In this document: piece by piece, positions 6,701 to 29,100 of the stretch
How the letters are laid out: each line of letters opens with the position of its first letter
How positions within the stretch are numbered: position 1 is the first letter of the stretch
Source of the DNA: a virus
Lineage: Duplodnaviria; Caudoviricetes
Length of the DNA stretch: 64,000 nt
Direction: 5' to 3' (one strand)
IMG/VR virus record: IMGVR_UViG_3300028591_000168
Coordinates: 1-64,000 of that record
The notes under the pieces: generated by a model
The model's input: the letters and a program-made list of their open reading frames with translations, nothing else
The model's database searches: none
Told to the model about the DNA's origin: nothing
Made by a program: the position numbers and the translations under genes

Positions 6701-7302
6701 GCGCAAGCACCGAAAACGCACCCCTTTTTTTCCATATCCAGCGTAAACTGGACGAACTCTGCTACCAGCGGGTTGTGCATCGAGCAGTCACCCGCTTGTT
6801 GCGTGTTCATTTTGGTGCCCAACTTCTCTGACGCTTCTTGCATTTTTCCCCCTATGAGAGAGTAAACGTCGGCGAAGCTGTAACGAAACCGACGGAACCC
6901 TGCGTTAAAGGCAGTCGTCACGATTTCTTTTGCAACGTCGATTGATTGCTCTTTCAGCACAAAAATGTGCGCCGGCACAATGGGGTCTACCCTGATCACA
7001 ACGTGATCCTTCGGGAAACCCTGGTTGCAGAACTCTACGAGTTTTTGGAAGCGTTCTCTCCATTCCAGAACTCCACGTTCCAGGAAGGTGTTGCCCAGTC
7101 CCGTTATAGTAGCGTGCAGGACGTACTTTTCCGGGTGAGCCAGCAGCTCAGCTTGCCCTTTGCTCGACAGGCATCCTTTCGTAACGATTACGGCTGCGGG
7201 GCAGATACCTGCCTGCATTTTGGGGATCCACTCTTCGTGCCAGGTGGGATCGCCGTCCTCGGTAATACCGATTTTTACTATTTCTTTCATTTCTTTTTCC
7301 AT
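3730..7302 (-). CDS. multidomain protein: DUF1848/radical-SAM-like N-terminus, DarG-like macrodomain, unknown domain, acidic region (1190 aa)
   Basis: IVTK, LHATITGLG, VIRVDPI and CPHACLYCY motifs; NPVNVCGVMGAGLAKQF...ATK...SVAIPRLGTGKGHLDW macro motifs; AAGGAGG RBS. Confidence 0.75.
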   Translation of the reverse strand: MEKEMKEIVKIGITEDGDPTWHEEWIPKMQAGICPAAVIVTKGCLSSKGQAELLAHPEKYVLHATITGLGNTFLERGVLEWRERFQKLVEFCNQGFPKDHVVIRVDPIVPAHIFVLKEQSIDVAKEIVTTAFNAGFRRFRYSFADVYSLIGGKMQEASEKLGTKMNTQQAGDCSMHNPLVAEFVQFTLDMEKKGCVFGACAESDVPRHHKKGCISEDDFILFGIPVSEMMPPGSNPQRKRCMCPANKFELLEHKGQQCPHACLYCYQAARHEGNECQGDCANCKSHCSNEIRQLVDTKNIFETNAQVLVNPVNVCGVMGAGLAKQFADNFPAMLVDYKAECENSGINKDISDEDLDIATDIFCKDGWLNVWQKGDVTVANLATKVHFKRDSYYPLIESSLKLLTAWICKNKPDSVAIPRLGTGKGHLDWKIVHPIILSAIKDWPTTTKVWVDGEWQKNNKEENNMDKNQDLNNNGNSNKEEEKAMRRITIISGALNPLDTNRNFRNTYINADPDIKMPNTGVIIVAYSVTNVMNAIKNNGQVVTVRVNPDNVAALSCALLTAGFEVNVPSSKGTAAEKKDETKKEPDIFSRTFGTHTIQRAAVVNKYSLGVVEKGDGFVMVKPLLVITPVTPVCESALTGCETWDLNKINGAVRCCGAFAINGEHVGVFSVVVDDATARDIIPNFSFRTLKHPKVVVAKIVKKILLQEKKIEEQDDIKCWICDMGHWDKRHIEGNKEGSYFYVTTFCAETQNQVKKMYREFCEEHATVYHLGTMSRSEELEQLKADIKAKDAEIVALRAELAAAQNTTTGVKQSKKARRMPSVFNGLNIQALIDKNLSVADVAAMVVEIKQARYDLIAAADGTKAKKAGIPRSFLGCSVTSAIKRGLSFAAFIEEVKAFYLGEQDQQDEQGEQNEQDKPTVPGDITADTEVEDGGEEPAVEATDDPQSDINKDNKDNDDPEDPEDPQDDNTPDDDTAPKKDNKPKFSAKGFCFASGKEAVEIVNGKQNDKADDEDDQEEEQEDQGDQEEEQEELIPEEEKTPDVQDKGDIVSTTPKVVLAVYEDPDDETWEKWYKVYGSEKFVKKYYEVEVKRPNALQSEQEVNEINKEIFEQAQTNLCCLAGFFFDTDKDAFVKGLNEICDNLGCDVYIKDVIVDNDGNVFVTLPVSMGSDTVTVRLEKHDDKLVSFQE

Positions 7303-7331
7303 TGTGAAAACCTCCTTATAAAGTAACAGTT

Positions 7332-7488
7332 TTGATATCAACACAAAAAGACAGAACAATCATAACAGTTACACAGAAGATAACTTCCAATAGTTTGGGA
7401 CCTTAGCTGACGGCCACTCAAACTCTTTGCTATAACTGATATCTGCGTAACTGTTACTCTTGTTCTGTCTTTGTTGTGTTGATATCAA
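7332..7488. other. 157-nt long imperfect inverted repeat (rod-like hairpin)
   Basis: TTGATATCAACACAA-AAAGACAGAACAA ... TTGTTCTGTCTTT-G-TTGTGTTGATATCAA; inner TAACAGTTAC/GTAACTGTTA. Confidence 0.85.
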
Positions 7489-15824: not shown

Positions 15825-15900
15825 TTTTAATATCCCCTTTTTAGTTAAACTTGTTGATAACGGCATCTATGTAAACACGACAAGGCGTGATAAAACAGTA

Positions 15901-15974
15901 TTTTGTTCCTTCTGCTGTTTATGGGGGCTTAGGACCCTTTCTTCTGATATCAAAAGAAGCCGCATTAAACAAAA
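15901..15974 (-). ncRNA. twister ribozyme A
   Basis: UUUUGUU-UAA-UGC-GGC-[P3]-AGGGUCCUAAGCCCCC-AUAAACA-GCA-GAAGG-AACAAAA; P1, P2, P4 and both pseudoknots intact; predicted cleavage 15967/15966. Confidence 0.88.
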
Positions 15975-15997
15975 AAGGGGGAAAGAATCCCCCCTTA
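15971..15997 (-). terminator. intrinsic terminator abutting twister A
   Basis: AAGGGGGG ATTCTTT CCCCCTT TTTT on -. Confidence 0.7.
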
Positions 15998-16007
15998 TCT
16001 TGTTTTG

Positions 16008-16652
16008 TTATCTTGTCCTGTAGAACAATTCCACAAGGTTGTCAGCCTCGTAGAACGTCCAAGACAAGTTGTGATAGTCTATGTCTGCAATTGCTACGGT
16101 CTTGCTGCGGTTCATAAAGTGGACCTTAATGTTAAAACCGTAGCTGTTCTCGAAAGAGAAGTCGGCGAGCATACCGCCGTAGCAGCACATCACGTTAACT
16201 GTGATATCACTGTTGACTTCGACGTAAGCCCACGACAAGATATTGTCAATGAGTACCCCTATGTCGTATTCGTCGCACGATACTTCGGGGTCTGTCTCGA
16301 ATACCTTTGCGTACAAACCACCCTGGCGTGCACCGTGGCAAAAGAGAAAATACTCGTTGTCAGCAGTAACGCCGAGCAGCCAGCCGCTGCCTTGGGGCAC
16401 GCCGCCGTAGCATTGTTCTTCGTACACAACGCGTTTCAGCTGCACGTTATGAACTGCGAAGTTACCGCCGTGGCGCAAGTACCACGATATGAAATCGCAG
16501 ACGCTTTGTTTCTGTTCGCTATCCGATTTCCACCAAGCGTCAAGGCTGAACGCAAGGTGGTCTTTGATATCGATCGTGCACGGGTTCAGAACCGGTGTAT
16601 AGGTGTTAGCCTGCTCGATAGTGCCTTCTACTTCTGTGATTTCCCATTTCAT
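16008..16652 (-). CDS. hypothetical protein (214 aa)
   Basis: GGGAGG RBS; class II motif 34 nt upstream. Confidence 0.8.
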   Translation of the reverse strand: MKWEITEVEGTIEQANTYTPVLNPCTIDIKDHLAFSLDAWWKSDSEQKQSVCDFISWYLRHGGNFAVHNVQLKRVVYEEQCYGGVPQGSGWLLGVTADNEYFLFCHGARQGGLYAKVFETDPEVSCDEYDIGVLIDNILSWAYVEVNSDITVNVMCCYGGMLADFSFENSYGFNIKVHFMNRSKTVAIADIDYHNLSWTFYEADNLVELFYRTR

Positions 16653-16743
16653 AGTAAAAACCTCCCAAAATAATAAAGTGTTAGTAACGGCATCTATGTA
16701 AACACACCATAACAGCACCAACGGCTTTGGCGGTGTCATAGTG

Positions 16744-16772
16744 TTGACAAAGAAAAAACCCTATGATATCAT
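16744..16772 (+). promoter_or_regulatory. sigmaA-type promoter, antisense to the HExxH gene array
   Basis: TTGACA-17-TATCAT. Confidence 0.6.
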
Positions 16773-16814
16773 AAAGATACTATTCTTAATAGCATTCCTC
16801 ATAAAAAGATAGGG

Positions 16815-16841
16815 GAGCAGTTTAACGTCATGCTCAGGACG
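16815..16841 (-). ncRNA. H-type pseudoknot motif, copy 3
   Basis: CGUC-CU-GAGCA-U-GACG-UUAAAC-UGCUC. Confidence 0.6.
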
Positions 16842-16860
16842 GATATCAACATTTTGTGGG

Positions 16861-17385
16861 CTAAAACACGGCAGTTAATCCAAGCACCTGTATTGCCTCA
16901 GGATGTTCGGATGATTTCAACTCTTGAATTGCAAGAGCAACAAATGATCTTATCGCAAATTGAGTTTTTACGTTATAGATCATGTTTTCCTCTACTTTCT
17001 GCAAAAGAGCGGGAGGTCGTGTACGATATAGTTCGAAGTATCGTGCTTCAATCTCATGCGGAGCAAAGAGGTCAAAGCTGGCTTGCAAACCATATCGCAC
17101 AAATTGTTTTCTTACGGAAGACAAAAGTTGTAGCTGCCATAAAGTCTCTTTTTGTTGAACTACGTGCCAAAATTCGTGGGCTATTACGGCTTCTATACCG
17201 TTTAACGCAACATTTGCAAGGTTAACAACAATAGTTGTTCCTATAAAACGTCCACGATATTTTTTATCTGGCAAGCTCTCACAAGAAAGAGAAATATTAG
17301 GAACATGATATTTCTGTTGTAATTGTAACAGGTATATCCTTCCTAACGTTTGGCAATACAGCCACTTAAGTATGATCACAGGCAT
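16861..17385 (-). CDS. HExxH zincin-like metallopeptidase paralogue 1 (174 aa)
   Basis: HEFWHVVQ...PHEIEAR; AGGAGG RBS. Confidence 0.7.
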   Translation of the reverse strand: MPVIILKWLYCQTLGRIYLLQLQQKYHVPNISLSCESLPDKKYRGRFIGTTIVVNLANVALNGIEAVIAHEFWHVVQQKETLWQLQLLSSVRKQFVRYGLQASFDLFAPHEIEARYFELYRTRPPALLQKVEENMIYNVKTQFAIRSFVALAIQELKSSEHPEAIQVLGLTAVF

Positions 17386-17406
17386 TCCTCCTAAAAAAAG
17401 ATAAAA

Positions 17407-17434
17407 GAGCAGTTTAACGTCATACTCAGGACGT
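17407..17434 (-). ncRNA. H-type pseudoknot motif, copy 4
   Basis: ACGUC/GACGU, GAGUA/UGCUC, loop UAAAC. Confidence 0.6.
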
Positions 17435-17543
17435 GAGACAATAATGTTTGAATATGACATACCACTATCAGAACCGGAACGTTGCAGTATTGCGAGAATT
17501 CCTAAGAATCTTTCTATTCGCACAGCGTTTTATGGTCCTGATA

Positions 17544-18047
17544 TCAGCAGTCATACATTTGACGGACAAGAGACACCAAACCTTCAGTGCCCTTTTTTGC
17601 GTATTCCCTCCGAAGATCAGACGCAGATAGCCTTGAGAAGTAATGGTCCGTGTATACGGTGCCATAACTTTCTCCGAAAGCTCGTGCATCTAGCTCGAGA
17701 AGAGAATACCGGTATACAAGGTATCCTTGAGTTGTCGGCTCGTGGTCACAGTATTCACGACATTGGCTCAAGTAGAAGTCGTGAATTGCTTGGAGCCGAC
17801 TGTCAGACTTTGCTTCTTTCTCTCTTAGCAAGTGACAGTACTCATGGCACAACGCTTGAATACCGTAAGCCATGTCAGGAATGTTGTTCAAATCCATTAT
17901 GATCAAGTTAGGACTCTGAACTGCTGACACAGCTTTTGCAAAGTCGCCGTCAAAAAACACTCTAACTTTGAGAAGATATCTGTTCTCAAGCTCTTGTTGG
18001 GCCATCTTACAGATATCTTTAAAGTTGGAATGTAAAGTTTTTACCAT
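17544..18047 (-). CDS. HExxH zincin-like metallopeptidase paralogue 2 (167 aa)
   Basis: HEYCHLLR...LLELDARAF; GGAGGTG RBS. Confidence 0.7.
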   Translation of the reverse strand: MVKTLHSNFKDICKMAQQELENRYLLKVRVFFDGDFAKAVSAVQSPNLIIMDLNNIPDMAYGIQALCHEYCHLLREKEAKSDSRLQAIHDFYLSQCREYCDHEPTTQGYLVYRYSLLELDARAFGESYGTVYTDHYFSRLSASDLRREYAKKGTEGLVSLVRQMYDC

Positions 18048-18073
18048 AGGCAACACCTCCACAAAAGATAAAG

Positions 18074-18100
18074 GAGCAGTTTATTGTCATGCTCAGGACA
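18074..18100 (-). ncRNA. H-type pseudoknot motif, copy 5
   Basis: UGUC/GACA (compensatory), GAGCA/UGCUC. Confidence 0.6.
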
Positions 18101-18110
18101 CGTCAAGAAG

Positions 18111-18728
18111 TTACCAGTGTAATCCAAGCCTATCTATCTGAGATTGAGAAATCTCGTCATGGTAGTCTTGGTTTATCTTCTTCCGAATATCTTCCAGTTC
18201 ATCCGGTGCTAGCGGTTCTTCGGCCAGCCACGACAGAAGAACTGAAAAGCATGTGCATATCCCTTGAGTCTGAAGAAGGTGCTTGTACTCTTGTACCCGT
18301 TCTTCGACCGATAGGGGTTTCGGAAGATTTGTGGCCATATCCCGTGTTTCAGATTCGAAGTGACGAGCTCCGATTTCTACAGGATTTAGCCAGTAAAGGA
18401 GATAGGCGATACCTTCAGTATGGTCACCGAGATAAGACATAAATTCTTGTGACCTTTGCATAGCTTCAGGTATTGTTTTCCATTGTACAGCGTGCCAGAA
18501 TTCATGACGTGCTTTGCTGATTACCTGTTCCTTACTAACAAAGTTTTTGTAGTAAAGAACTATAGTGTTATCATCATGTCTGTAAAGTCCACGTCTAAAA
18601 CTTGCAAGATAGTTTAGCTCCAACTTAACGTCATAGCTATATCGTGAGTTTAACATGGTTACAGTTTTTGTCGCTGCATTTTTGAAAACAGATTGTTCTA
18701 TTCCCCTTACTTTCGGCATTAACGCCAT
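18111..18728 (-). CDS. HExxH zincin-like metallopeptidase paralogue 3 (205 aa)
   Basis: HEFWHAVQ...NPVEIGAR; GAGGTG RBS. Confidence 0.7.
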   Translation of the reverse strand: MALMPKVRGIEQSVFKNAATKTVTMLNSRYSYDVKLELNYLASFRRGLYRHDDNTIVLYYKNFVSKEQVISKARHEFWHAVQWKTIPEAMQRSQEFMSYLGDHTEGIAYLLYWLNPVEIGARHFESETRDMATNLPKPLSVEERVQEYKHLLQTQGICTCFSVLLSWLAEEPLAPDELEDIRKKINQDYHDEISQSQIDRLGLHW

Positions 18729-18756
18729 AGGCATCACCTCTGATAAAAAGATAAAG

Positions 18757-18784
18757 GAGTAGTTTAACGTCATGCTCAGGACGC
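18757..18784 (-). ncRNA. H-type pseudoknot motif, copy 6
   Basis: GCGUC/GACGU; S2 has one mismatch. Confidence 0.55.
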
Positions 18785-18790
18785 AAGAAG

Positions 18791-19540
18791 TTATCGTGAA
18801 TGACGCTGAACGAATAGCGACAGAAACAGAGAGATATCGTCGATACCGTTACTGCGCAATGTTTCCTGCAGTGCCGATACCGACGCTTTCAGTGTTTCAG
18901 AAAGTTTATCTCTTGTCTGTCCCGACGTCTTGGTGGTTGCACCTGTCGGGCTGCAGAGTCGCTGATACTCTGCTAACAGACTTTCCTGTCGATTGTTCAG
19001 CTCGTAACCGGGATATTGCTGCAGTAGAGCAACAGCTAGAAGAGGATGTGATATCAACTCTTCAAGTGGACACGGACTTCCTGTTAACCAAGGATCAACA
19101 GCGGCATCTGTTAGAATCCCTGTCAGTTCAAAGACACGCGCTTCAATCTCTAGTGGATTCAACAGCGTGTTATGAACTGCCAATAGGAAGCGTCCAGCTC
19201 CCGGTTTTTGACGTATTCGCCGATATAACACCTTGTTTAGCAAGAAACGACGAACGTGCACTGCCTCGTGACGAATATCGTTTTTGGCAGTTAGTCTCTT
19301 GCCAGGTGTATACCGACGAATTAGGACACGAAATTGTTCGTAGTCAAACGCAGCCAGAAGCTGCAGTTCGTCCTGATCTTCAAGAATGTCTTCGATATCT
19401 GGTAGTTGAGCAAACTCTACCTTCGTTGATATCAAAGCCTCCTGAAGCCAAGCTTGACATTGAACAATGTACGCGTTACGCTTGTCTTCGTCTAGAAAAC
19501 GACGAAGACTACGATAAACTTCTTGATCGGTTAGTGCCAT
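18791..19540 (-). CDS. HExxH zincin-like metallopeptidase paralogue 4 (249 aa)
   Basis: HEAVHVRR...NPLEIEARVF; GGAAAGGA RBS. Confidence 0.7.
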   Translation of the reverse strand: MALTDQEVYRSLRRFLDEDKRNAYIVQCQAWLQEALISTKVEFAQLPDIEDILEDQDELQLLAAFDYEQFRVLIRRYTPGKRLTAKNDIRHEAVHVRRFLLNKVLYRRIRQKPGAGRFLLAVHNTLLNPLEIEARVFELTGILTDAAVDPWLTGSPCPLEELISHPLLAVALLQQYPGYELNNRQESLLAEYQRLCSPTGATTKTSGQTRDKLSETLKASVSALQETLRSNGIDDISLFLSLFVQRHSR

Positions 19541-19568
19541 AGGCATCATCCTTTCCTTGTAAAGGAGA

Positions 19569-20090
19569 TTAGTAGACCGGAGACTCGACCTCCTTGTAAG
19601 GAACGCCGAGTTTGTCGGCAATAGCCTTGACATACCTCCTTTCTGTTGTCGTTGCGCTGGCGTTGCACCAGCAACCGACTATTTTGAAGTCACGGCACCA
19701 CGCTTCATGATACCGACCGTCGTCGTACGGCGCGACGCTGGTTTTGTCGACGATCAAGCTGCTGCGCAGCCAACTGTTCGTATAGTCGAACAGTCGACCG
19801 CCGACAGCTGACGCTGCGTCCACGTAGCTCTCGATATCTTCGTTTGCGATTAGGGTGATATCTCCCTTGACGAAGACACCGAAGCTGCCGATCTCCTCAC
19901 CGGGCAAGGAGCAGCAGATATCCCTGCCGGCTTTGGCAACTTTGAGCAACCTTGAGAACGTGTCGACTATGCTGGCGCCCAGCGCCTTAGCACTGAACGC
20001 CTTCAAGCCATGCGCAAGCGTGATACCCTGCAGTGCTGTGCAAGGTTTGACACTTGTCAGAAATGTTTCGAACTTCTTGTTAATCTTCAT
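19569..20090 (-). CDS. stand-alone predicted ART-like domain protein (173 aa)
   Basis: AHGLKAF...ICCS...GSFGV...DIES...YHEAW...GCW; AGGAGG RBS. Confidence 0.7.
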   Translation of the reverse strand: MKINKKFETFLTSVKPCTALQGITLAHGLKAFSAKALGASIVDTFSRLLKVAKAGRDICCSLPGEEIGSFGVFVKGDITLIANEDIESYVDAASAVGGRLFDYTNSWLRSSLIVDKTSVAPYDDGRYHEAWCRDFKIVGCWCNASATTTERRYVKAIADKLGVPYKEVESPVY

Positions 20091-20181
20091 AGTGAATTCC
20101 TCCTAAAACAAAGTGTTAATAACGGCTTTATGTAAACACTGTGATATCAACAACGGCTTTGAAGATATCTCAGTGGAATTG

Positions 20182-20210
20182 TTGACAAAGAAAAAGCCTT
20201 ATGGTATAAT
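20182..20210 (+). promoter_or_regulatory. consensus extended sigmaA promoter, antisense to the 36-aa peptide genes
   Basis: TTGACA-17-TATAAT with TG at -15/-14. Confidence 0.8.
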
Positions 20211-20315
20211 AAGGCTAAAGTTGAACAGCAAGATTCTCTCTAGTCTTATCTTGCTACAGCTGTTGTACTCTTAGGTAGCTGAAAGTATAGGCAAAAATAT
20301 CGTATGTATGGTAAG

Positions 20316-20426
20316 TTAACTGCCAAGCAACATTTTGGTAAGACAATCTGCGAAGTAGTACAGAATGTCAAACCAGACATCGATGGCGTTGATAACTGTG
20401 GCAATGTCTACCATTAACTTCCACAC
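20316..20426 (-). CDS. small hydrophobic peptide, family W, copy 1 (36 aa)
   Basis: AAGGAGG RBS, GTG; MWKLMVDIATVINAIDVWFDILYYFADCLTKMLLGS*. Confidence 0.8.
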   Translation of the reverse strand: MWKLMVDIATVINAIDVWFDILYYFADCLTKMLLGS

Positions 20427-20705
20427 AACGAACAGCCTCCTTTCTGACAAGCTAAGAGAACAATCTCTCTTGTTACAGCAAGAGACCCTGCACAAAGCAT
20501 TAGTAAGCATCTTAGCAATAAGGTGCTTACTATCGCTTTGTACAAAGGAATGTTTGCTAATGTCTTGTGCAAAAAGGTTTAACGGGGCTTCAGAGTGTTC
20601 CGAAGCCCCGAACAGCAAGCAGGATTATCTGTATCTTATCCTGCCAAACCAAGGTACTCTTAAAAAGCTCAAGGTATAGTAAGATTATCTGACGTATAAT
20701 GAAAG

Positions 20706-20816
20706 TTAATTGCCAAGTAACATTTTGGTAAGACAATCTGCAATGGCATACAGAATGTCAAACCAAGTCGTAATGGCGTTGGTAAGAGTTGCTGCTTCGA
20801 TTATCAACTTCCACAT
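20706..20816 (-). CDS. small hydrophobic peptide, family W, copy 2 (36 aa)
   Basis: AAGGAGGT RBS; MWKLIIEAATLTNAITTWFDILYAIADCLTKMLLGN*. Confidence 0.8.
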   Translation of the reverse strand: MWKLIIEAATLTNAITTWFDILYAIADCLTKMLLGN

Positions 20817-20950
20817 ACGAAAGAACCTCCTTCCCCTTACTTTTGTTAAGAGTATCAATCTCTCACACTGTCACTGTGAGACCCTGCACAAGGCATTAGC
20901 AAACATTCTGCCAAGAAAGTGCTTGATAGCGGTTTGTACAAAAAAAACAC

Positions 20951-20978
20951 AAAAGCCCTCCAAAACAGAGGGCTTTTA
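20951..20978. terminator. bidirectional terminator-like hairpin
   Basis: AAAAGCCCTC CAAAACA GAGGGCTTTT. Confidence 0.7.
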
Positions 20979-20996
20979 GTGTCTGAAAAGGAGGAG

Positions 20997-21025
20997 GAGC
21001 AGTTTAACGTCATGTGTTCAGGACA
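20997..21025 (-). ncRNA. H-type pseudoknot motif, copy 7 (degenerate S2)
   Basis: UGUC/GACG-UUAAAC-UGCUC, 3 nt after the stop at 21028. Confidence 0.45.
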
Positions 21026-21027
21026 AA

Positions 21028-22785
21028 TCAGAATGGCACATCGTCGAGGTCAATAGGCTCGCCACCCCAATCGTCGTCGTCTGTGTCATAGGAGGATATA
21101 TCGTCCTTTTCGCCACTGTTCTCGCCACTGTAATGTTGTTGCCTGTTCTTGTGCCACACCTGTCTTTCTTGTGACTTGGCTTGTTGCATCCAAATACCCA
21201 AAGGCGTGTACCAGCACAAGGACGCCTCCTCGTCTTCAGGACTAAGAGGTATCTCAATGCCGAACATATCAAGCATCGAGTCGTAGTCAAACTTAATACT
21301 GCAGCGAAGTTTGTCGAAGAATTGCTTGACGTCTTCCCCCTGTTGCTCCCTGCAGAATCCTGCGGCGTACAGATACCACAGGAATTCGTAAGTGTCACTG
21401 CAGCAAAAATATCCTTTGTCCACAATGTCACTTACGAATTTATTAACGGGGGTCCACCTATTTTTCTCGGCGTCAACAACGTAGCATTGCTTGTCAAGAA
21501 ATTCAGCGAACTCCCATATGTTTATAACAAAATGGGGGTGCTCTACTGCAAACTGTCTTTCGATCCAAAATGCAGTAATTTTATGTTTGTCAAAGCAAAC
21601 GAATGACTCCGTGTACTTGTCGTCGTCTGCTTTATTTCTTTTGACAGCCTTTTTGAAGGCTTTTAAGGTTTTGCACCCTGAGCTTTCGTCAAAGGCGTGT
21701 GCTACCCTGTCTTCAAATTGAACTGAAGAACTGACGTCGTGTGAGAATGACGCCTTAATAACAGGGTATTTTAACACAATGCCGAAGCCGCCTAAAAACT
21801 TATTGCGCTCTGTTGCACAAATTTGGGCGTTTGTCGGCAGATTGTTCAGCTCTTCTAACCGAGTATACAATCCGCCCAACGACCTGTCGCACTGGTTAAA
21901 TGCCCACAGCCCGTGATTAACAATAATTCTGTCACGACGCCCGTCAAGGCCGGAACCTATTTCTTCCGTCCTGCAGAGCTCACACTTCTCGTCCCTGATT
22001 ATGCTCTTGGTGACGTAGAAGCGGTCTTCTGTCGTGGTTAACGTATACACCGTCTTAACAGGCCTTGTTAAAGACGGTGTCTCCGCATTCCACGGAGCTT
22101 TGGTTTTGCGACCGCAAATGGGACATACAACTTCTTCTTTTAAGAAGCCGTAATCTTCTAAGTCTTGATCGTCGCAGGTGCACTTCCATTGCCACTTATA
22201 ATAACCATTGGAGACGTTGCTTATTGCACGCAACAGTTCTTCTTGGGTGAACCGTATATCGTGTGTTTCCATAACTGGCAGTGACACGCCGTAGTTTAGC
22301 GCGATTTCGCACTGCCACGCTGACGTCACCCCGTTAACCGTTTCAGGAGGATAGCTTTTTACCAGGGTGGCGTTCTTTGTTAACCACTCAAGATCCTCCG
22401 CCGTCTTGACATAAAAATGCCACGGCGTGGTGCCTTTTGCGGTATAGCAATACACCACAGCCGGCAGATCGTCTGCCATTGCCATGAACCTGTTGTCCCT
22501 TTCAGGCACAGGCCATTTATCGTGCTTACTGCACACGGCAAGCTCTTCGTTGAGAGCAGTTTCGTATGCCGCCAGCGCGGCCTTGACAGCTTTGCGCGCC
22601 TTTCTTGCAAGGCGAGCTGCGGCGCGAGCCTTTTCTGCGGCACGACGAGCCGCCTTTTTAGCTTCGACAGCACGACGTTTTTCAGCCTTTTTGGCCTCAG
22701 CGGCGCACATTGTCACAAACTCGTCGATAGTGACTTTCTTAGCTGCCAGCGCAGCTTGAATTTTGGACTTCAGATTAATCAACAT
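21028..22785 (-). CDS. 585-aa protein: Ala/Lys-rich N-terminus, Cys zinc-ribbon, predicted ART-like domain
   Basis: KCTC/CPICGR/CELC; NHGLWAF...ICAT...GGFGI...DVSS...YTE...FW. Confidence 0.75.
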   Translation of the reverse strand: MLINLKSKIQAALAAKKVTIDEFVTMCAAEAKKAEKRRAVEAKKAARRAAEKARAAARLARKARKAVKAALAAYETALNEELAVCSKHDKWPVPERDNRFMAMADDLPAVVYCYTAKGTTPWHFYVKTAEDLEWLTKNATLVKSYPPETVNGVTSAWQCEIALNYGVSLPVMETHDIRFTQEELLRAISNVSNGYYKWQWKCTCDDQDLEDYGFLKEEVVCPICGRKTKAPWNAETPSLTRPVKTVYTLTTTEDRFYVTKSIIRDEKCELCRTEEIGSGLDGRRDRIIVNHGLWAFNQCDRSLGGLYTRLEELNNLPTNAQICATERNKFLGGFGIVLKYPVIKASFSHDVSSSVQFEDRVAHAFDESSGCKTLKAFKKAVKRNKADDDKYTESFVCFDKHKITAFWIERQFAVEHPHFVINIWEFAEFLDKQCYVVDAEKNRWTPVNKFVSDIVDKGYFCCSDTYEFLWYLYAAGFCREQQGEDVKQFFDKLRCSIKFDYDSMLDMFGIEIPLSPEDEEASLCWYTPLGIWMQQAKSQERQVWHKNRQQHYSGENSGEKDDISSYDTDDDDWGGEPIDLDDVPF

Positions 22786-22879
22786 GATAAGCCCTCCTTA
22801 GAGCTATGGACAAAAAAGTTAACAACGGCTTTATGTAAACACAACTGTCGTTATTAACGCGACAGTGTGGTTGAACAGT

Positions 22880-22942
22880 TTTTCCCGTCTGCGTTTACAG
22901 AGGCTTCGGACTCTTAACCGTTAGGTTAGCCGCATTAGAAAA
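22880..22942 (-). ncRNA. twister ribozyme B
   Basis: UUUUC-UAA-UGC-GGC-UAACC/GGUUA-AGAGUCCGAAGCCUCU-GUAAAC-GCA-GACGG-GAAAA; predicted cleavage 22937/22936. Confidence 0.88.
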
Positions 22943-22948
22943 TAGATC

Positions 22949-22977
22949 TTGACATTTGTGATATCAAGATCTATAAT
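22949..22977 (+). promoter_or_regulatory. consensus sigmaA promoter, antisense to the 41-aa peptide gene
   Basis: TTGACA-17-TATAAT. Confidence 0.8.
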
Positions 22978-23051
22978 GTCAGATAAGTTCTGACAAACTT
23001 CTGCGATTATTACGTTCTCGAGAAAGAAACAGAAAGGCATGCTAGCCAGAA

Positions 23052-23177
23052 TTAACCGAAAACTGCGTGAGCTATTGCGTAAGCAATAACACTTTCGACA
23101 ATTCTAGATATCTTAACCTCAGACAAAGTTTTTTGCACAAACTTGCCTAAAGTTTTAAGAATCTTTTTAGCTTTCAT
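23052..23177 (-). CDS. small cationic/hydrophobic peptide, family K, copy 1 (41 aa)
   Basis: GAAAGGA RBS; MKAKKILKTLGKFVQKTLSEVKISRIVESVIAYAIAHAVFG*. Confidence 0.75.
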   Translation of the reverse strand: MKAKKILKTLGKFVQKTLSEVKISRIVESVIAYAIAHAVFG

Positions 23178-23201
23178 GCCGTTTTTCCACTTCCTTTCAT
23201 T

Positions 23202-23244
23202 AAACAATGTCAGTTATTGTCGTGAGGAATAACTGACATTGTTT
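23202..23244. terminator. 17-bp perfect-stem hairpin, likely terminator of the + antisense RNA
   Basis: AAACAATGTCAGTTATT GTCGTGAGG AATAACTGACATTGTTT. Confidence 0.65.
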
Positions 23245-23247
23245 CTT

Positions 23248-23308
23248 GTTTTCTCTCTGCGTTAGGGGCTTGAGACCCTCTGCTCTAAGAGTAGGCCGCA
23301 TTAGAAGA
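23248..23308 (-). ncRNA. twister ribozyme C (weak P1)
   Basis: UAA-UGC-GGC-[P3]-AGGGUCUCAAGCCCC-UAAC-GCA-GAGAG; T1 CU/AG compensatory; predicted cleavage 23303/23302. Confidence 0.78.
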
Positions 23309-23314
23309 TAAGCC

Positions 23315-23343
23315 TTGACATAAAAGACGTCAAAGCTTATAAT
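23315..23343 (+). promoter_or_regulatory. consensus sigmaA promoter, antisense to the 35-aa peptide gene
   Basis: TTGACA-17-TATAAT. Confidence 0.8.
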
Positions 23344-23414
23344 GTCACGTAAGTCCTGACATTTCAGACTTCAAAGATTGGTTTCGCTTTCTTTGATAAG
23401 CGTTTTACTGTTGA

Positions 23415-23476
23415 GTCACATTGACAGTAACGAAACAACGCCGTTTCCGTACCCTTGACCCTGGGCACTCTTATCA
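23415..23476 (-). ncRNA. unidentified conserved structured RNA motif, copy 1
   Basis: Paralogue at 24021-24083 with compensatory stem changes around a conserved AAACAACG (+) loop. Confidence 0.45.
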
Positions 23477-23543
23477 ATTGTTTGTGCTGTAATCACAAAC
23501 TTACCAAGAGAGAAACGGAACAGGTATGACTAAGATAAGTTCA

Positions 23544-23651
23544 TTAACCGATGATATAGTGCAAGATAAGACCTGCAATTACCATTTCGGCAATGTTCTT
23601 AACGCTAAGGCTTTTAATGTGGTTAACCAAAGCGTTTACGATCTTTTTCAT
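23544..23651 (-). CDS. small peptide, family K, copy 2 (35 aa)
   Basis: GGGAGGT RBS; MKKIVNALVNHIKSLSVKNIAEMVIAGLILHYIIG*; shares I.E.VIA..I.H...G* with the 41-aa peptide. Confidence 0.75.
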   Translation of the reverse strand: MKKIVNALVNHIKSLSVKNIAEMVIAGLILHYIIG

Positions 23652-23726
23652 ACCTTGTGCACCTCCCTACAAAAAAGAGATATCTTTTATTGTTGTTACA
23701 GTCAACAGAAGATATCTCTTTTTGTC

Positions 23727-23793
23727 TCTTCCCTTCCACAGTTTATAGAGGCTTAGGACTCTCAACTACGCTATAGTTGGCCGTGTTAGAAGA
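23727..23793 (-). ncRNA. twister ribozyme D
   Basis: UCUUC-UAA-CAC-GGC-CAACUA/UAGUUG-AGAGUCCUAAGCCUCU-AUAAACU-GUG-GAAGG-GAAGA; predicted cleavage 23788/23787. Confidence 0.9.
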
Positions 23794-23799
23794 TAAGCC

Positions 23800-23828
23800 T
23801 TGACAAACGCTTCTATAAACCGTATAAT
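23800..23828 (+). promoter_or_regulatory. consensus sigmaA promoter, antisense to the 38-aa peptide gene
   Basis: TTGACA-17-TATAAT. Confidence 0.8.
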
Positions 23829-24020
23829 GTGCAAGAATCGTGGATGCCACGAGGATAGCTCGGTAATAAAGCATATAGAACATGTTAATCCCGAGAATCT
23901 TGCAATTAAAGTTGTAAGAAGCATAGAAACAAGATATCAAGGCTTATAATGTCACATAAGTCCTGACATTACAGACTCCTGCAACAGTTATGTTCTTGCA
24001 GGTAAACAAACATAGTTGCA

Positions 24021-24083
24021 GTCACGTTGGCTATGTTAGAAACAACGCTACTTCCGTACCCTTAAGGCGGGGCATCCTTATCA
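24021..24083 (-). ncRNA. unidentified conserved structured RNA motif, copy 2
   Basis: See 23415-23476. Confidence 0.45.
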
Positions 24084-24134
24084 CTGCTGTCACAAAGGCA
24101 GCCACCAAGGAAGAAGTAGAAGCCGTAAAGAAGG

Positions 24135-24251
24135 TTAGAAGTTGTTCATAAAGAAGTTAACAATTTGCCATATCCACCTAATGACGGTTAAGGGATTTTT
24201 CTTGGCAAAAGTTATAGCTTTACGAAGATACTTTTTAAGCTTCTTCTTCAC
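24135..24251 (-). CDS. small cationic amphipathic peptide (38 aa, GTG start)
   Basis: AGGAGGTG RBS; MKKKLKKYLRKAITFAKKNPLTVIRWIWQIVNFFMNNF*. Confidence 0.75.
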   Translation of the reverse strand: MKKKLKKYLRKAITFAKKNPLTVIRWIWQIVNFFMNNF

Positions 24252-24382
24252 GGTATGTTCACCTCCTAGAGAGTGTGACAGTGATAATAACGGTTGTATA
24301 GCACAAAAAGGCCTTAGCATTCCTCGACTTGATCAGTTCACAGTACTGACAGAATGCTAAGGTTCTTTTTGTTTGTTGGGTC

Positions 24383-24455
24383 TTTTTCCCTCTGCGTTAG
24401 TGGCTTGGGACACTCTACCCTTGACGATAACAACAGGGCAGGCCGCATTAAAAAA
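24383..24455 (-). ncRNA. twister ribozyme E
   Basis: UUUUU-UAA-UGC-GGC-[P3]-AGUGUCCCAAGCCACU-AAC-GCA-GAGGG-AAAAA; predicted cleavage 24450/24449. Confidence 0.88.
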
Positions 24456-24477
24456 GGGCCTCAAATGAGGCCCAAAA
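24451..24477. terminator. terminator hairpin whose U-tract doubles as the P1 strand of twister E
   Basis: GGGCCTC AAAT GAGGCCC flanked by A/T runs. Confidence 0.7.
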
Positions 24478-27172
24478 GTTTCATATTTTCTATTATCTGC
24501 TGCCGCTGCTGTTGCAGCTTTTCGACACTCACGGACATAGTCCGCTTGCGCTGTGTGCAGCGGCGTGCGCATTCTTCGGGATCGGTGTCCACGAAATGCG
24601 CGTTAATTTCGTAGCCGCACTCCCTGAGGACGTGTGCCACGATTTTAAGCGAGCCGTTGTCCCCAACCATGGGGATAGCGACGTTGTACCCTTTCACCGC
24701 GAGATACTGCAGGACCCAGCTAGCAATCTTGCTGGACTCTCTGCAGACATTAGTGGCGTCGCCGCCGTTGTACTCGGGCAGCAACCACTTAACAACGTCG
24801 GGATCGACAGTATAGTAGCCGTCAAGACCTCTAACGTATGTCGACTTACCAGAGCCCGGAAGACCGCAAACGATCGTAGCCTTACGGTCTCTTTTAGCTA
24901 CCTGGTCCGCTCTTCTAGTGAGAAGATTGAACAGATATGCCCTCAGCCACGGGCGACTTTCTTCAAGGCCGAAATGACCCCAGGTGTCTCCTTCGACCTT
25001 GATAGAGTTGACTGCGCTGTCAATACCGTGTTGCCAATAGGCAGCGCAGTACTCTGAGGCTTCCATGCTGCCCTGCAGCTCACTATCGGTGAACTTCAGA
25101 ACATACATTTGTACACCTGTATCTTGCGCAATGTCTGTTAGCGCTTTAAAGAAGTGGGGGTGTCCCACCGCAAAATCTTCCTTGATCCACATTGCAAGGA
25201 GTGAAGCATTCTTGCCCATTCGTACGATAAGCTCAACGTACTGACAGGCATTGTTGCCGTACGCCAAGTGATCTTTGACGGCGTCGTTATACGCCTTTCT
25301 ATTCTTAAGTCCAGCGTGGAAATTACGGGTGGCGTAGCGTTTGTCGCTATCCTCCTCGTCCCGTTCGGACCAAGCATCGGAGCAGGTGTAGTCAAACGCC
25401 GCTTTGATATCAGGGTGTTCAATTGTTACCCCAAAATCTCCGCAGAACTGCTCCTGCTCCGTGGTGCAAAATTCCACGGTTTCAGAGAGAGAAAGGAACT
25501 CCCTGAAACGCTGCAAAGCGCCGTGGACGTTGTTCTCTCCCTTTCTGAAAGCCCACAGACCGTGGTTGACGGTAATGTTATCCTTGACACCGTCAAGACC
25601 GCCACCGTAATAGACAGTTTGGCAGTCGTTGCACATTTCATCGCTGTCAAGGTTGGCAATCGCTATGCTGCCTTCCACAAGTCTAACTTCGTATCTTATA
25701 GAAGACAAGTAGAAGTTGCTATGCCGGCAATAGCTGTGTATGCTCTCCTTTCCGCACTTCGGGCAGCGTTTACTTTCGTTAACGCCTCCGTTTTGCGTTT
25801 TCGCAGCGACGAAAATTAGCTCCTCCGCTGAATTAACCTTCGCGACTTCTTCTTTTTGAAGGGCCTTTTTGCAATCGGGGCAAATCAGTCCATTTTCAAG
25901 CCGGCCTTTTATTACGCCAACATGTTCTCCTTTCTCGTTGACGTAATATTGCCCGAAGGAATCCAGGGTTTCGTAGTAATTGTTTTCGTCACCTCCGTCC
26001 TCTTCCTCCGAGAGCTTGCCGCAGATTGGGCAAAGTACTGCTACCCGTTCTGCAACGATATTGTCGTTGTCGTCGAGCTCGTTTGTGGAAAGAAGATCAA
26101 CGGTGCACTCCCGCCAAGAATTGACAGGTCTGCTCTCGACTTGCAAAAGCAGTGCCTGCTTGCACTCTTCGAACGACGTATCGACGAAGGTGTAAGCGTC
26201 CTCTTCCTTAATGGAAGTGTCGTTTGCGTCAAGGAAGACACCTTCTATTTCAAGCCGCCCTTCCTGGTAATTTCTATGGGCGTACGTTATTACGCTCTTT
26301 TTCAAGAGCAGTTTGAAGTCACGCACCGTGTCTATTTCGTAACAACGGCTGTCGTGCTTCTCAACCGGATTCTGTACCTCAGCGTAAATGGTGTACCCTT
26401 GCTGGAGAAGCTTATCGATAGCCTTCGCATACTCACAGCACCTTTCTGCGCTGGGCAGATACTTGAGCGCGTCCATAAGAAGCTGGTGTTTCTCCTTAAC
26501 AGCTTCAAACGCGTTTTCTATTGCGGCCGACTTGGATTTGAATTCTGCCTCGGCCTCTTCATTATTTTTCTTGTCCTCTTCTGTGAGGCCCCAGCCGAAG
26601 AAGCCGGTTTTTACTCGAGCGCTATATGCACTATACGCTTCGGTTCTGTTCTTTTCGTACTCCTCCTCTGCCTGCAACAAGTCTGCCTTAGACTTCTGGA
26701 GCAAGTCCAGTGCCTCTTGCAGGCCGTTCAACATTAGAGACTTGATAGCCTCCACCGGCTTGACCGGCTTGACCGATTCTTCCCAAGCCTTACCGGCCTT
26801 GATGTCGGCAGCAATGGCTGCCTTTTTATCGGCCATTGTGCTGGCCTTCCAGCTGTCCAAGGCCGCTTTCTCGGCCTTACGGGCGCGGCGGGCAGCAGCT
26901 TTCGCCCTGCGCGCCGCATCTTTTGCGAGGCGTTCTTCCTCGCGTGCTTTCTTGGCCGCGATAGCTGCGGCTTTTCTTGCGGCCTTGGCAGCCGCTTGGC
27001 GGCGTGCCTCGGCTTCCTCAGCGCACGCCAGCACGAACGTGCTGGTCGTGTAGCCAGCTGCTTTCAACGCAGCGGACAATTTCTTGCTGATCGTGTTGTT
27101 TTTCATTTTGAACATCTCCCTATTTTTGCTTTCGTTTTTGTTGCTGTTGTTGGTGTTGTTCATTTTCGTCAT
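24461..27172 (-). CDS. 903-aa polyvalent protein: Ala/Lys-rich N-terminus, zinc ribbons, predicted ART-like domain, C-terminal zeta-toxin-like/AAA_33 P-loop kinase
   Basis: CPICGK, CPDC, CPKCGK, CNDC; NHGLWAF...FCTT...YVE...MW; GLPGSGKSTY...VDPDVVKWLLPEY; AAGGAGG RBS. Confidence 0.75.
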   Translation of the reverse strand: MTKMNNTNNSNKNESKNREMFKMKNNTISKKLSAALKAAGYTTSTFVLACAEEAEARRQAAAKAARKAAAIAAKKAREEERLAKDAARRAKAAARRARKAEKAALDSWKASTMADKKAAIAADIKAGKAWEESVKPVKPVEAIKSLMLNGLQEALDLLQKSKADLLQAEEEYEKNRTEAYSAYSARVKTGFFGWGLTEEDKKNNEEAEAEFKSKSAAIENAFEAVKEKHQLLMDALKYLPSAERCCEYAKAIDKLLQQGYTIYAEVQNPVEKHDSRCYEIDTVRDFKLLLKKSVITYAHRNYQEGRLEIEGVFLDANDTSIKEEDAYTFVDTSFEECKQALLLQVESRPVNSWRECTVDLLSTNELDDNDNIVAERVAVLCPICGKLSEEEDGGDENNYYETLDSFGQYYVNEKGEHVGVIKGRLENGLICPDCKKALQKEEVAKVNSAEELIFVAAKTQNGGVNESKRCPKCGKESIHSYCRHSNFYLSSIRYEVRLVEGSIAIANLDSDEMCNDCQTVYYGGGLDGVKDNITVNHGLWAFRKGENNVHGALQRFREFLSLSETVEFCTTEQEQFCGDFGVTIEHPDIKAAFDYTCSDAWSERDEEDSDKRYATRNFHAGLKNRKAYNDAVKDHLAYGNNACQYVELIVRMGKNASLLAMWIKEDFAVGHPHFFKALTDIAQDTGVQMYVLKFTDSELQGSMEASEYCAAYWQHGIDSAVNSIKVEGDTWGHFGLEESRPWLRAYLFNLLTRRADQVAKRDRKATIVCGLPGSGKSTYVRGLDGYYTVDPDVVKWLLPEYNGGDATNVCRESSKIASWVLQYLAVKGYNVAIPMVGDNGSLKIVAHVLRECGYEINAHFVDTDPEECARRCTQRKRTMSVSVEKLQQQRQQIIENMKLLGLI

Positions 27173-27436
27173 GATAATCAACCTCCTTTGGTTGCACACT
27201 CTGTCTGATATCTTCAGCTCAGAGTCGAGACCCATGACGTGGTCTCTTTACAGGTTTACCCACCCTTGATTATAGTGAGATGATCCTCACTCGAGATTAT
27301 ATTGCCTGTACAACGCTGTCAGAAAAAGCTAACGTTGAAGGCGAGTCTCGGTTGCCCATTCAAACCTGTTAGAAAGCATGGGATATATGTTAACGTAAAC
27401 TCATATATCGGATATAAGCTTACGGTTGATCAGTAT

Positions 27437-27514
27437 TCTTCCCTTCCACTGTTTATAGGGGCTTAGGACCCTTTCCTTTGATCTTTTGATATCAAAGGAA
27501 GCCGTGTTAGAAGA
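27437..27514 (-). ncRNA. twister ribozyme F
   Basis: UCUUC-UAA-CAC-GGC-UUCCUUUGAU/AUCAAAGGAA-AGGGUCCUAAGCCCCU-AUAAACA-GUG-GAAGG-GAAGA; predicted cleavage 27509/27508. Confidence 0.9.
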
Positions 27515-27589
27515 TAAGTCTTGACACAAAAGATAAAGAGATATCTTTTATTGTTGTTACAGTCAACAGAAGATATCTCTTTTTGTTTT

Positions 27590-27647
27590 CTTCCTCTCTG
27601 TGTTAGGGGCTTGAGACCCGCTGTCTTACGACAGGCCACATTAGAAG
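27590..27647 (-). ncRNA. twister ribozyme G
   Basis: CUUC-UAA-UGU-GGC-CUGUC/GACAG-CGGGUCUCAAGCCCC-UAAC-ACA-GAGAG-GAAG; predicted cleavage 27643/27642. Confidence 0.88.
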
Positions 27648-27705
27648 CGCCCCTGAAAAGGGGCGAGAAGCTGCGCGCACCCCTGAAGAGGGGCATTTAC
27701 TGTAA

Positions 27706-28566
27706 CTATTCTGTTATAAAGACGTTGACTCCCTTGGGAATCTCGTCTTTTACCAGATAATACATTGCAGGGGTCATCCAAACCCCCAATACGGCAGGAT
27801 TTTCCTGCCATACTTCTGCGCAATTATCGATATCTACATGTGAGTAGATATCGATAATTGACCGCTTGTATTTTTTCTTGTCACATTCTCGGCCGCCATC
27901 AGGCATCTTCCACGAGAAGACGTCTTCTGTAGCGGCGAATTTGACGTTACCACGAAGCAACACGCCAATGTTGCCCATGGGTTTGCCGCTGGTGCACAGC
28001 ACCATTTTATGCGTTTCCATTTTGGCGTACAGAGCCAATGCCCTGGCCAAAAGTCCCGAATAAAACTTACGCCGCAACTTTTTCGTCATAATGGCTACTC
28101 GTTGAGGCGAAGCCTCACCACCAAAAGACTCCATTGTCTTCTTTACGTCTTCCTCATTCGGAGGAAAAGACATAAAGTCAACAGCGTGATAAAACGCTAC
28201 GCTGTCGAGCATGGTGACGGGCACCTGCGCTTCTTCTGCTTGTGTTATCACAGGCACAAGAGCGCGGCAGGGCAGTACCGTGAGAGCGCGGCAGGGCACC
28301 ACGACAAGAGCACGGGTCTGTACCGGCACCAACGCGCGGCACTCGGCCGGTACGAGAGTGCGGCAGGGCAGCACCGTAATGGCACGGCAGGGCAGCACCG
28401 TGAGAGCGCGGGGTTGTGCCTGCACGAGAGCGCAGCAAACAGTGGTTGCCGAGCTGTTGATGTCGTCGACGTTAACGCTGGTGTTGCTGCTAGTGGTGTT
28501 GTCGCTTGCAACGAGTGCTGCGACGAGCATGAGAACAACAATGATAACGATAATGATAATAGTCAT
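27706..28566 (-). CDS. membrane-anchored protein with 8-aa tandem repeats and a C-terminal predicted ART-like domain (286 aa)
   Basis: N-terminal IIIIVIIVVLMLVAALVA; RALTVLPC-type repeats; YHAV...LCTS...GNIGV...DVFS...AEVW...GVW. Confidence 0.7.
   Translation of the reverse strand: MTIIIIVIIVVLMLVAALVASDNTTSSNTSVNVDDINSSATTVCCALVQAQPRALTVLPCRAITVLPCRTLVPAECRALVPVQTRALVVVPCRALTVLPCRALVPVITQAEEAQVPVTMLDSVAFYHAVDFMSFPPNEEDVKKTMESFGGEASPQRVAIMTKKLRRKFYSGLLARALALYAKMETHKMVLCTSGKPMGNIGVLLRGNVKFAATEDVFSWKMPDGGRECDKKKYKRSIIDIYSHVDIDNCAEVWQENPAVLGVWMTPAMYYLVKDEIPKGVNVFITE
28250..28410 (-). repeat. about 7 imperfect 24-bp (8-aa) coding repeats
   Basis: RALTVLPC RAITVLPC RTLVPAEC RALVPVQT RALVVVPC RALTVLPC RALVPV. 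Confidence 0.85.
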
Positions 28567-28781
28567 GATTATTACCTCCTTAGGGTAACCCGTGCATGCC
28601 TTGTTGCAAGTCACGGTCGGAAGACATGACGACTTCCTGGATCTTCTGGCTTAGTTTATAGTGAGGTGCGACTCACTCGGTTACAGCAACCAGTTCCCAC
28701 TCGATCCTAAAACATGGGTTTATGTAAACACGGCAAGAACGAAGCGTATAGCTATGTTGTTGCAAGCCGTAGTTGAACAGT

Positions 28782-28850
28782 GCTAGCCATCTGCGTTTAC
28801 GGAGGCTTTGGACTCCTAGCTTTGATATCAAAGCTAGCCGCATTACGAGC
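28782..28850 (-). ncRNA. twister ribozyme H
   Basis: GCUCG-UAA-UGC-GGC-UAGCUUUG/CAAAGCUA-GGAGUCCAAAGCCUCC-GUAAAC-GCA-GAUGG-CUAGC; predicted cleavage 28845/28844. Confidence 0.85.
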
Positions 28851-28920
28851 AATTCTCACGAAATTGACCCCGGGGGCTAAAAATCCCAAAATGACCAAGA
28901 TCATAATAAAAACAGGTTCC

Positions 28921-29030
28921 TCCGGAAATTTTTTATTTTTTGAGATCCTAATAGGTTTTTAGACTTTTTGAGATCCTAATAGGTTTTTTAGACTTTATCT
29001 TTTTTAGCGAGTTTCCGGAAATTTTTCCTT
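28921..29030. repeat. tandem ~28-bp repeat flanked by TCCGGAAATTTTT direct repeats at the strand switch
   Basis: TTTTGAGATCCTAATAGGTTTTT(T)AGACT x2. Confidence 0.8.
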
Positions 29031-29100
29031 GAAACTCTGAGGATCTTTGTTATAACCGGTAATAGCAAGAATAGGAGGGAAAAAGAAAGGATGGTAGAAA

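Follow-up and report, generated by a model that had tools for sequence, protein, structure and literature searches.

A 64,000-nt stretch of tailed-phage DNA (positions 1 to 64,000 of IMG/VR virus record IMGVR_UViG_3300028591_000168, Caudoviricetes; hereafter the window) carries, in a minus-strand arm, eight elements that, judged by their sequence, are type-P1 twister ribozymes with an intact catalytic core. The array is a further example of an established ribozyme class, and no new class of element. The minus-strand arm extends from about 1.3 to 28.85 kb and is separated by a divergent control region (28850-29100) from a plus-strand arm that begins at 29.1 kb. From the layout of ribozymes, hairpins and genes, we consider it probable that transcripts of the minus-strand arm are self-processed into defined units, with hairpin-protected 3' ends and 5'-OH ends headed by a twister. 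We infer that transcripts cross the sites and are cut there in vivo, the resulting ends being shielded by the hairpin and the twister fold.

Identity of the eight ribozymes

The Rfam model for the type-P1 twister is RF03160, which has a gathering threshold of 67.2 bits. Scanning the window at that threshold returned group I and group II introns only, with no twister; an E-value threshold was needed for detection, and with it RF03160 matched the minus strand of the window eight times, each time over the full length of the model (model positions 1-68), with scores of 41.4-53.5 bits (E 8e-10 to 2e-6; Table 1). These matches fall exactly at the sites where a first-pass annotation, made from the letters of the sequence, had placed eight P1-type twisters, and the model alignment is consistent with all eight of its U/A cut positions. 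All eight sites are thus significant by E-value, though under the gathering threshold. The same search found no copy beyond the eight in the complete 79.5-kb virus record and no match in 14 control genomes, and a degenerate core pattern that occurs eight times in the window is expected 0.00 times from shuffled sequence.

An alignment of the eight copies shows invariant columns at T5 A6 A7, G11 G12 C13, GTC..AAGCC, AAC and GA..G; these are the U-A-A at the cut, the GC of L2, the GUC..AAGCC loop, the AAC and the GA before T1, and they match the Rfam consensus. The class consensus requires about ten highly conserved nucleotides in L1 and L4, the GC in L2 and a scissile U-A beside P1 (PMC5408937, section 8). 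The copies also have the three essential stems, P1, P2 (4 bp) and P4, with their termini in P1, P3 closed by a loop and no P5. Over helices P1, P2, P3 and P4 and pseudoknots T1 and T2, pairing is seen in 95.7% of cells, and 16 of the 23 pairs show two-sided changes, a level reached by none of 500 shuffles; partners slid along the alignment pair in only 41-56% of cells. Two-sided changes occur in all four helices (paired cells: P1 90.6%, P2 100%, P3 93.8%, P4 93.8%). T1, which joins loop L4 to the 3' strand of L1 by three Watson-Crick pairs, is 100% paired, with pair 48-71 present as CG or UA and pair 49-70 as CG, UA, AU or GC. The T2 pairs between the GC of L2 and a GC in L4, G12-C53 and C13-G52, are present in all eight copies and in all 19 members of a larger set, and because they are invariant T2 contributes no evidence from covariation. 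That larger alignment comprises 19 sequences from five phage records, namely the eight copies, five from a relative described below and six from three other contigs; in it 96.6% of cells are paired and 18 of 23 pairs covary; T1 pairs in every cell (100%), and two of its pairs covary.

The sequence variants listed by the first-pass annotation are all present in the eight-copy alignment: the compensatory P2 changes UGC/GCA, CAC/GUG and UGU/ACA, the P4 variants AGGG, AGAG, AGUG and GGAG (to which CGGG can be added), and CC/GG versus CU/AG in T1. T1 covaries more than had been claimed, with a third pair that occurs as C-G, U-A, A-U and G-C. Compared with the described type-P1 twister (RF03160; Roth et al., 2014, as cited in PMC5408937), the copies share P1, P2, P4, an optional P3, T1 and T2, the scissile U-A step beside P1, the GC of L2, and the conserved nucleotides of L1 and L4. 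They differ in their sub-threshold scores, in a U/A-rich P1 that is often drawn from a terminator U-tract, and in a P4-P2' junction that is 3 nt shorter in three copies (UAAC instead of NUAAAC).

It is extremely improbable that the eight matches are look-alikes that do not cleave and serve as structured spacers or protein-binding sites. Bit scores uniformly below the gathering threshold would fit such elements, but every class-required position is present, both pseudoknots can form, and T1 covaries through four Watson-Crick pair types.

Two separate points concern the helices. Circularisation of twister-flanked units was considered and dropped: the P1 strands are mostly CUUC/GAAG, which makes cross-pairing between copies uninformative. 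The P3 hairpins of twisters A, F and H, and that of H' in the relative, contain the palindrome TTGATATCAA; the record has 237 copies of GATATC, many more than expected.

Table 1. Coordinates of the twister ribozymes and associated features of the minus-strand arm
Feature	Position	Strand	Details
Twister A	15904..15971	-	Predicted cut after U15967; RF03160, 48.2 bits, E 2.7e-8
Twister B	22881..22941	-	Predicted cut after U22937; RF03160, 53.5 bits, E 8e-10
Twister C	23249..23307	-	Predicted cut after U23303; RF03160, 41.4 bits, E 2.3e-6
Twister D	23728..23792	-	Predicted cut after U23788; RF03160, 50.3 bits, E 6.6e-9
Twister E	24384..24454	-	Predicted cut after U24450; RF03160, 49.8 bits, E 9.4e-9
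Twister F	27438..27513	-	Predicted cut after U27509; RF03160, 48.1 bits, E 2.8e-8
Twister G	27590..27647	-	Predicted cut after U27643; RF03160, 45.8 bits, E 1.4e-7
Twister H	28783..28849	-	Predicted cut after U28845; RF03160, 53.5 bits, E 8e-10
Terminator before A	15996-15975, then TTTTGTTTAA	-	U-tract gives P1 5' strand (UGUU)
Terminator before E	24473-24456, then TTTTTTAATG	-	U-tract is P1 5' strand (UUUU)
Hairpin before B	22942-22974	-	14 bp
Hairpin before C	23308-23340	-	
Hairpin before G	27649-27664	-	
41-aa ORF (MKAKKILK...)	23052..23177	-	Between C and B; ribosome-binding site; also called on other assemblies
35-aa ORF (MKKIVNAL...)	23544..23651	-	Between D and C; GGGAGG ribosome-binding site
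38-aa ORF (VKKKLKKY...)	24135..24251	-	Between E and D; AGGAGG ribosome-binding site
Perfect TTGACA-17-TATAAT promoter	22949..22977	+	-35 hexamer 8 nt from 5' edge of B; conserved in the relative
Perfect antisense sigma-A-type promoter	23315..23343	+	8 nt from twister C
Perfect antisense sigma-A-type promoter	23800..23828	+	8 nt from twister D
Motif GTGTTTACATA(AAGCCGTT)	22832..22842	-	After B, about 50 nt before start codon

Hairpins, terminators and probable processing of arm transcripts

All eight ribozymes are intergenic, as had been proposed: none overlaps a credible open reading frame (ORF) after three starts are reassigned to codons that have a ribosome-binding site. Five of them (A, B, C, E and G) are each preceded by a hairpin of -12 kcal/mol or stronger that ends at most 8 nt before the cut, an arrangement present in 7% of control windows (p = 1e-4). 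The test used an energy threshold; a laxer first criterion let about half of the control windows through. All five twisters of the relative have such a hairpin at -9 kcal/mol; in other phage contigs 6 of 22 twisters have one, compared with 10% of controls, in a test that omits weaker viral matches with GCAGAGGG just upstream (permuted-twister-like). A long-range stem lies before D. The hairpins at A and E are canonical intrinsic terminators whose U-tracts feed P1, which agrees with the overlap that the first-pass annotation had reported. Since the U-tract of the preceding hairpin forms P1, ribozymes A and E should act only on RNA that extends past the hairpin, and should cut it near where a terminated transcript would end.

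In the mechanism that we propose, a minus-strand transcript running through a twister would fold into the double-pseudoknot core and self-cleave at the U-A step that marks the 5' edge of the ribozyme. RNA on the upstream side would be left with a 2',3'-cyclic phosphate 4-6 nt past a stable hairpin, an end that at A and E would essentially equal the end made by intrinsic termination, and the downstream RNA would begin with a 5'-OH adenosine and be headed by the complete folded twister. The pieces between cuts would be about 1.2 kb (286-aa gene), 134 nt, 3.06 kb (903-aa gene), and 662, 485 and 366 nt (small-peptide cassettes), and two further units of about 2 kb and about 1.6 kb would end at terminators. 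Twister F lies about 200 nt before the 903-aa gene, which encodes a kinase domain.

Phage T7 early transcripts are cut by RNase III at intergenic hairpins into discrete mRNAs with a protective 3' stem. The proposed processing would be alike in function only, in that one long transcript would be cut between genes into mRNAs with 3' stems; here, by contrast, the RNA would cut itself without a host enzyme and would leave 2',3'-cyclic phosphate and 5'-OH ends. For bacterial twisters and hammerheads, a role in processing polycistronic mRNAs is a published proposal that awaits demonstration (PMC6765202, section 13). The first-pass annotation had suggested that the ribozymes cut read-through early transcripts into discrete units. 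The intergenic placement, the hairpin and terminator layout and the five twisters of the relative argue for this suggestion; three places depart from so plain a scheme. H opens the minus-strand arm directly after the divergent control region, and no gene precedes it in this phage, such that its cut would trim a leader; the 134-nt piece between G and F has no ORF and holds only a hairpin and a decayed promoter; and the stem before D is a long-range one. Moreover, B to E delimit three small-peptide cassettes with perfect antisense promoters, which goes beyond a simple picture of gene units. The label "early" is only a guess from the gene content of the arm.

Small-peptide cassettes and related phages

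The three cassettes in 22880-24455 have the same order of parts: a twister, an AT-rich hairpin, a ribosome-binding site, an ORF of 35-41 aa, a conserved tail and a perfect antisense promoter. The stems of the tail covary (ccgtttc/gaaacgg versus ctacttc/gaagtag), and the spacing between promoter and twister is a constant 8 nt at B, C and D. Near-perfect sigma-A promoters occur in the 79.5-kb record only at 16744, 20182, 22949, 23315 and 23800, all on the plus strand and directed against the arm. Twisters C, D and E lie too close to their small ORFs for a promoter to fit between, which means that these ORFs have to be read from RNA that has crossed a twister.

No Pfam or other family match was found for the three small ORFs, whose predicted peptides look toxin-like. 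Type I toxin-antitoxin loci are found in Firmicutes prophages, for example txpA/RatA and bsrG/SR4. The cassettes between B and E resemble a type I toxin-antitoxin module in having a cationic/hydrophobic peptide of 35-41 aa, a strong ribosome-binding site and a strong convergent promoter, with toxin activity and antisense RNA both putative; they differ in that the peptides match no family and in that flanking ribozymes are foreign to known type I systems. Elsewhere on the minus strand, 20315-20834 contains two paralogous 36-aa ORFs (MWKLIIEAATL... and MWKLMVDIATV...) with strong ribosome-binding sites and no flanking twister; the second of them faces a perfect plus-strand promoter at 20182-20210.

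The 585-aa protein encoded next to the array has one homologue, with 62% identity, on a 344-kb scaffold (L122; the relative), and the syntenic arm of that scaffold has five twisters: after an 85-aa gene, after a 358-aa gene, on both sides of the kinase-domain gene, and before a 583-aa gene. Segments that comprise a twister and its leader are 93-98% identical between the two phages at the DNA level, compared with 63-73% for the flanking genes. The twisters pair as B-B' (93%), C-G' (93%), E-E' (94%), G-F' (98%) and F-H' (85%), and D has no close counterpart. The terminator before E' has the same shape and a different loop, the antisense promoters are still perfect, and orthologues of the 41-aa and 38-aa ORFs differ by four changes and one change, respectively. 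The relative also has the 85-aa gene upstream at the position of H, and a full cassette where our phage has the G-F interval. Cassettes thus occupy different slots in the two phages and are therefore mobile.

Beyond the relative, megablast of 22000-28900 against GenBank phages and an IMG/VR scan with the 924-aa protein (confirmed with tblastn) each returned nothing, and an IMG/VR scan with the portal protein returned only fragments of 4-6 kb at about 70% identity. Isolates that share the portal protein at 31-40% identity (0305phi8-36, Moorella MTATph1 and vB_BceM_WH1) have no twister, which argues that the array is not a deep trait of the lineage. Across an IMG/VR sample of 80 loci there are 55 model matches, and five other IMG/VR records that were searched whole have one to three twisters each. 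A pattern scan of bacterial and archaeal sequences gave at least 120 matches; one of the 80 loci searched with the model was a real twister (in a Gemmiger metagenome-assembled genome), such that the bacterial matches are almost all due to chance and the scan points to no host. Published work describes twisters close to phage genes and in clusters with other ribozymes (PMC4604425). The array resembles the twisters and hammerheads described near phage genes (PMC4604425; PMC6765202) in being intergenic, in having several copies within a few kb and in the role proposed, which is the processing of polycistronic or 3'-UTR mRNA; it differs in having eight ribozymes of one class in 13 kb, in its hairpin-then-ribozyme layout and in the conservation of position in a relative.

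A further group of seven IMG/VR contigs of 75-150 kb from one sample (L010, L028, L033, L054, L059, L072 and L079) carries GCAGAGGG, a closed hairpin and UAAUGCGGC. This arrangement suggests circularly permuted (P1-closed) twisters that are conserved in a family of phages of about 140 kb.

Leader motifs, alternative explanations and gene content

The conserved motif GTGTTTACATA found after B (Table 1) also occurs after A (15868-15878) and H (28721-28731), in degenerate form after F (near 27400), and without a twister at 20129-20139 and 16695-16705. It has no recognisable -10 element and a variable hairpin lies upstream; RNAalifold found no consensus structure in the leader that contains it. 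The long minus-strand leaders after F (27262-27300) and H (28648-28690) share a hairpin, GAGTGAG-n6-CTCAC, followed by TATAA, and the relative has the same hairpin at 5100-5125 and 6975-7000. A stretch of this leader, CTCACTATA, equals nine bases of the T7 promoter core, and CTGAGCTGAAGATATCAGACAG stands further on, just before the ribosome-binding site. The shared part may be either an element of the leader or a site where a phage polymerase starts.

A different minus-strand motif, CGUC-CUGAGCAU-GACG-UUAAACUGCUC, occurs seven times just past stop codons (near 1635, 3315, 16818, 17410, 18077, 18760 and 21000) and also in the relative (at about 6296-6325 and 13905-13930); the pattern was found nine times against 1.6 expected. 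Its GACGUUAAACU is presumably shared with coremin, the Xrn1-stalling motif of plant viruses. The coremin layout of a short hairpin, a YGAD-type loop and a conserved 10-nt spacer fits the motif (PMC6546385). In the relative this coremin-like motif fills the slot that our phage gives to a terminator and twister A, where it reads GUCCUGAGCAUGACGUUAAACUGCUCC, and it also precedes G'.

Several observations weigh against self-processing into protected units. Each of the eight RF03160 scores is under the gathering threshold. The terminators before A and E look strong, and little RNA may reach those ribozymes. No consensus sigma-A promoter for any minus-strand gene was found in the whole record, and transcripts may start either before or after a given twister. 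GTGTTTACATA could be a promoter or start signal downstream of A, B, F and H, in which case the genes that follow would not need cut RNA. In Firmicutes, RNase J1 degrades the 5'-OH RNA that the glmS ribozyme produces, and a 5'-OH end therefore need not be protective.

In the main rival explanation, which we regard as unlikely, the twisters are insulators or fail-safe terminators. They would cut transcripts that escape the hairpins, and a 5'-to-3' exonuclease such as RNase J1 would then destroy the 5'-OH fragment, perhaps in pursuit of the polymerase; genes would be expressed only from their own promoters, the cut would silence read-through, and primary 5' ends would be expected at or after the GTGTTTACATA or CTCACTATAA motifs. 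Besides the glmS precedent, this would account for A and E lying directly on terminator U-tracts and for a promoter-like or leader motif downstream of A, B, F and H and at two twister-free slots, and silence by default would be sensible for toxin-like B-E peptides opposed by perfect antisense promoters. Against this, the covarying hairpin before GTGTTTACATA and the missing -10 element indicate an RNA-level element, C, D and E leave no space for promoters before their ORFs, and the coremin-like motifs in sister slots suggest a theme of 5'-end protection. In addition, the 5' end of the 3' fragment of a cut twister is reported to be buried in the fold (PMC8782182, section 5), which would make entry of an exonuclease difficult.

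Much less probable, in our view, is a mobile-cassette explanation, in which each twister belongs to a small-peptide unit (with a hairpin, a small ORF, a structured tail and an antisense promoter) that spreads and shuffles by recombination, and the copies beside large genes would be leftovers of insertion and not tuned processing sites. The different slots occupied in the two phages (C-G' at 93%, G-F' at 98% and F-H' at 85%), the hairpin and decayed promoter in our G-F interval where the relative has a full cassette, and the fixed 8 nt between promoter and twister would all be explained. Relics, however, would not be expected to keep an intact core with compensatory changes, as 13 of 13 copies in the two phages do; A, E, F and H are not beside an antisense promoter, and the two further small-ORF cassettes at 20315-20834 have an antisense promoter and no twister.

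We offer one bolder reading tentatively and consider it doubtful: the arm, served by no sigma-A promoter, would be read by a polymerase that ignores host-type terminators, the ends of its RNAs would come wholly from built-in modules, and the cassettes would form a ribozyme-framed switch like a type I toxin-antitoxin system. If so, hairpin-plus-twister junctions would mimic terminated 3' ends and the coremin-like motifs in sister slots would block exonucleases, giving messages with armoured ends in a host rich in RNase J, and the twister-delimited small-peptide RNAs would be discrete units covered almost fully by antisense RNAs that the host transcribes. The role of bacterial and phage twisters is still called speculative (PMC5408937, section 13; PMC6765202, section 13). 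The locus offers a compact setting for testing it, with eight naturally varied copies, two sites where the cut coincides with a terminator end, a relative for orthologous comparison and neighbouring slots that hold a different RNA motif. Its peculiarities are a U-tract common to terminator and P1, a fixed spacing of promoter and twister, strongly conserved non-coding modules and, in sister slots, a second RNA motif; experiments on it could reveal whether cutting makes the flanking messages more stable or leads to their destruction.

The two arms differ in gene content. The plus-strand arm encodes a RecJ fusion, portal, major head and sheath proteins, and the minus-strand arm is non-structural, with mostly ORFans together with a macro/DarG-like domain and a zeta/AAA_33 kinase domain. 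CheckV puts the record at 55% completeness, an identical 585-aa protein is present on a contig of 354,821 bp, and the nearest isolates by portal (31-40% identity) are Firmicutes phages of 176-234 kb, which makes the earlier description of a large phage reasonable. The macro/DarG-like ADP-ribosyl glycohydrolase domain occupies residues 318-481 of a 1209-aa ORF (3730-7359, minus strand) and was matched in NCBIfam at E 7.5e-28, below the family cut-off; this ORF is a possible counter-defence gene. For a 1459-aa ORF, no match was found in Pfam, NCBIfam, the PDB or by phage tblastn. The idea that a 5'-OH kinase acts on the ribozyme ends was considered and is unsupported, since a PDB search with the kinase domain gave nothing significant (Pnkp1 only at E 0.94). 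No RtcB or RNA ligase family was found among 38 ORFs. The structural arm contains, on the plus strand, the Rfam introns at 41744-42002, 50045-52279 and 63447-63676, which are group I together with a group II intron that carries a reverse-transcriptase ORF.

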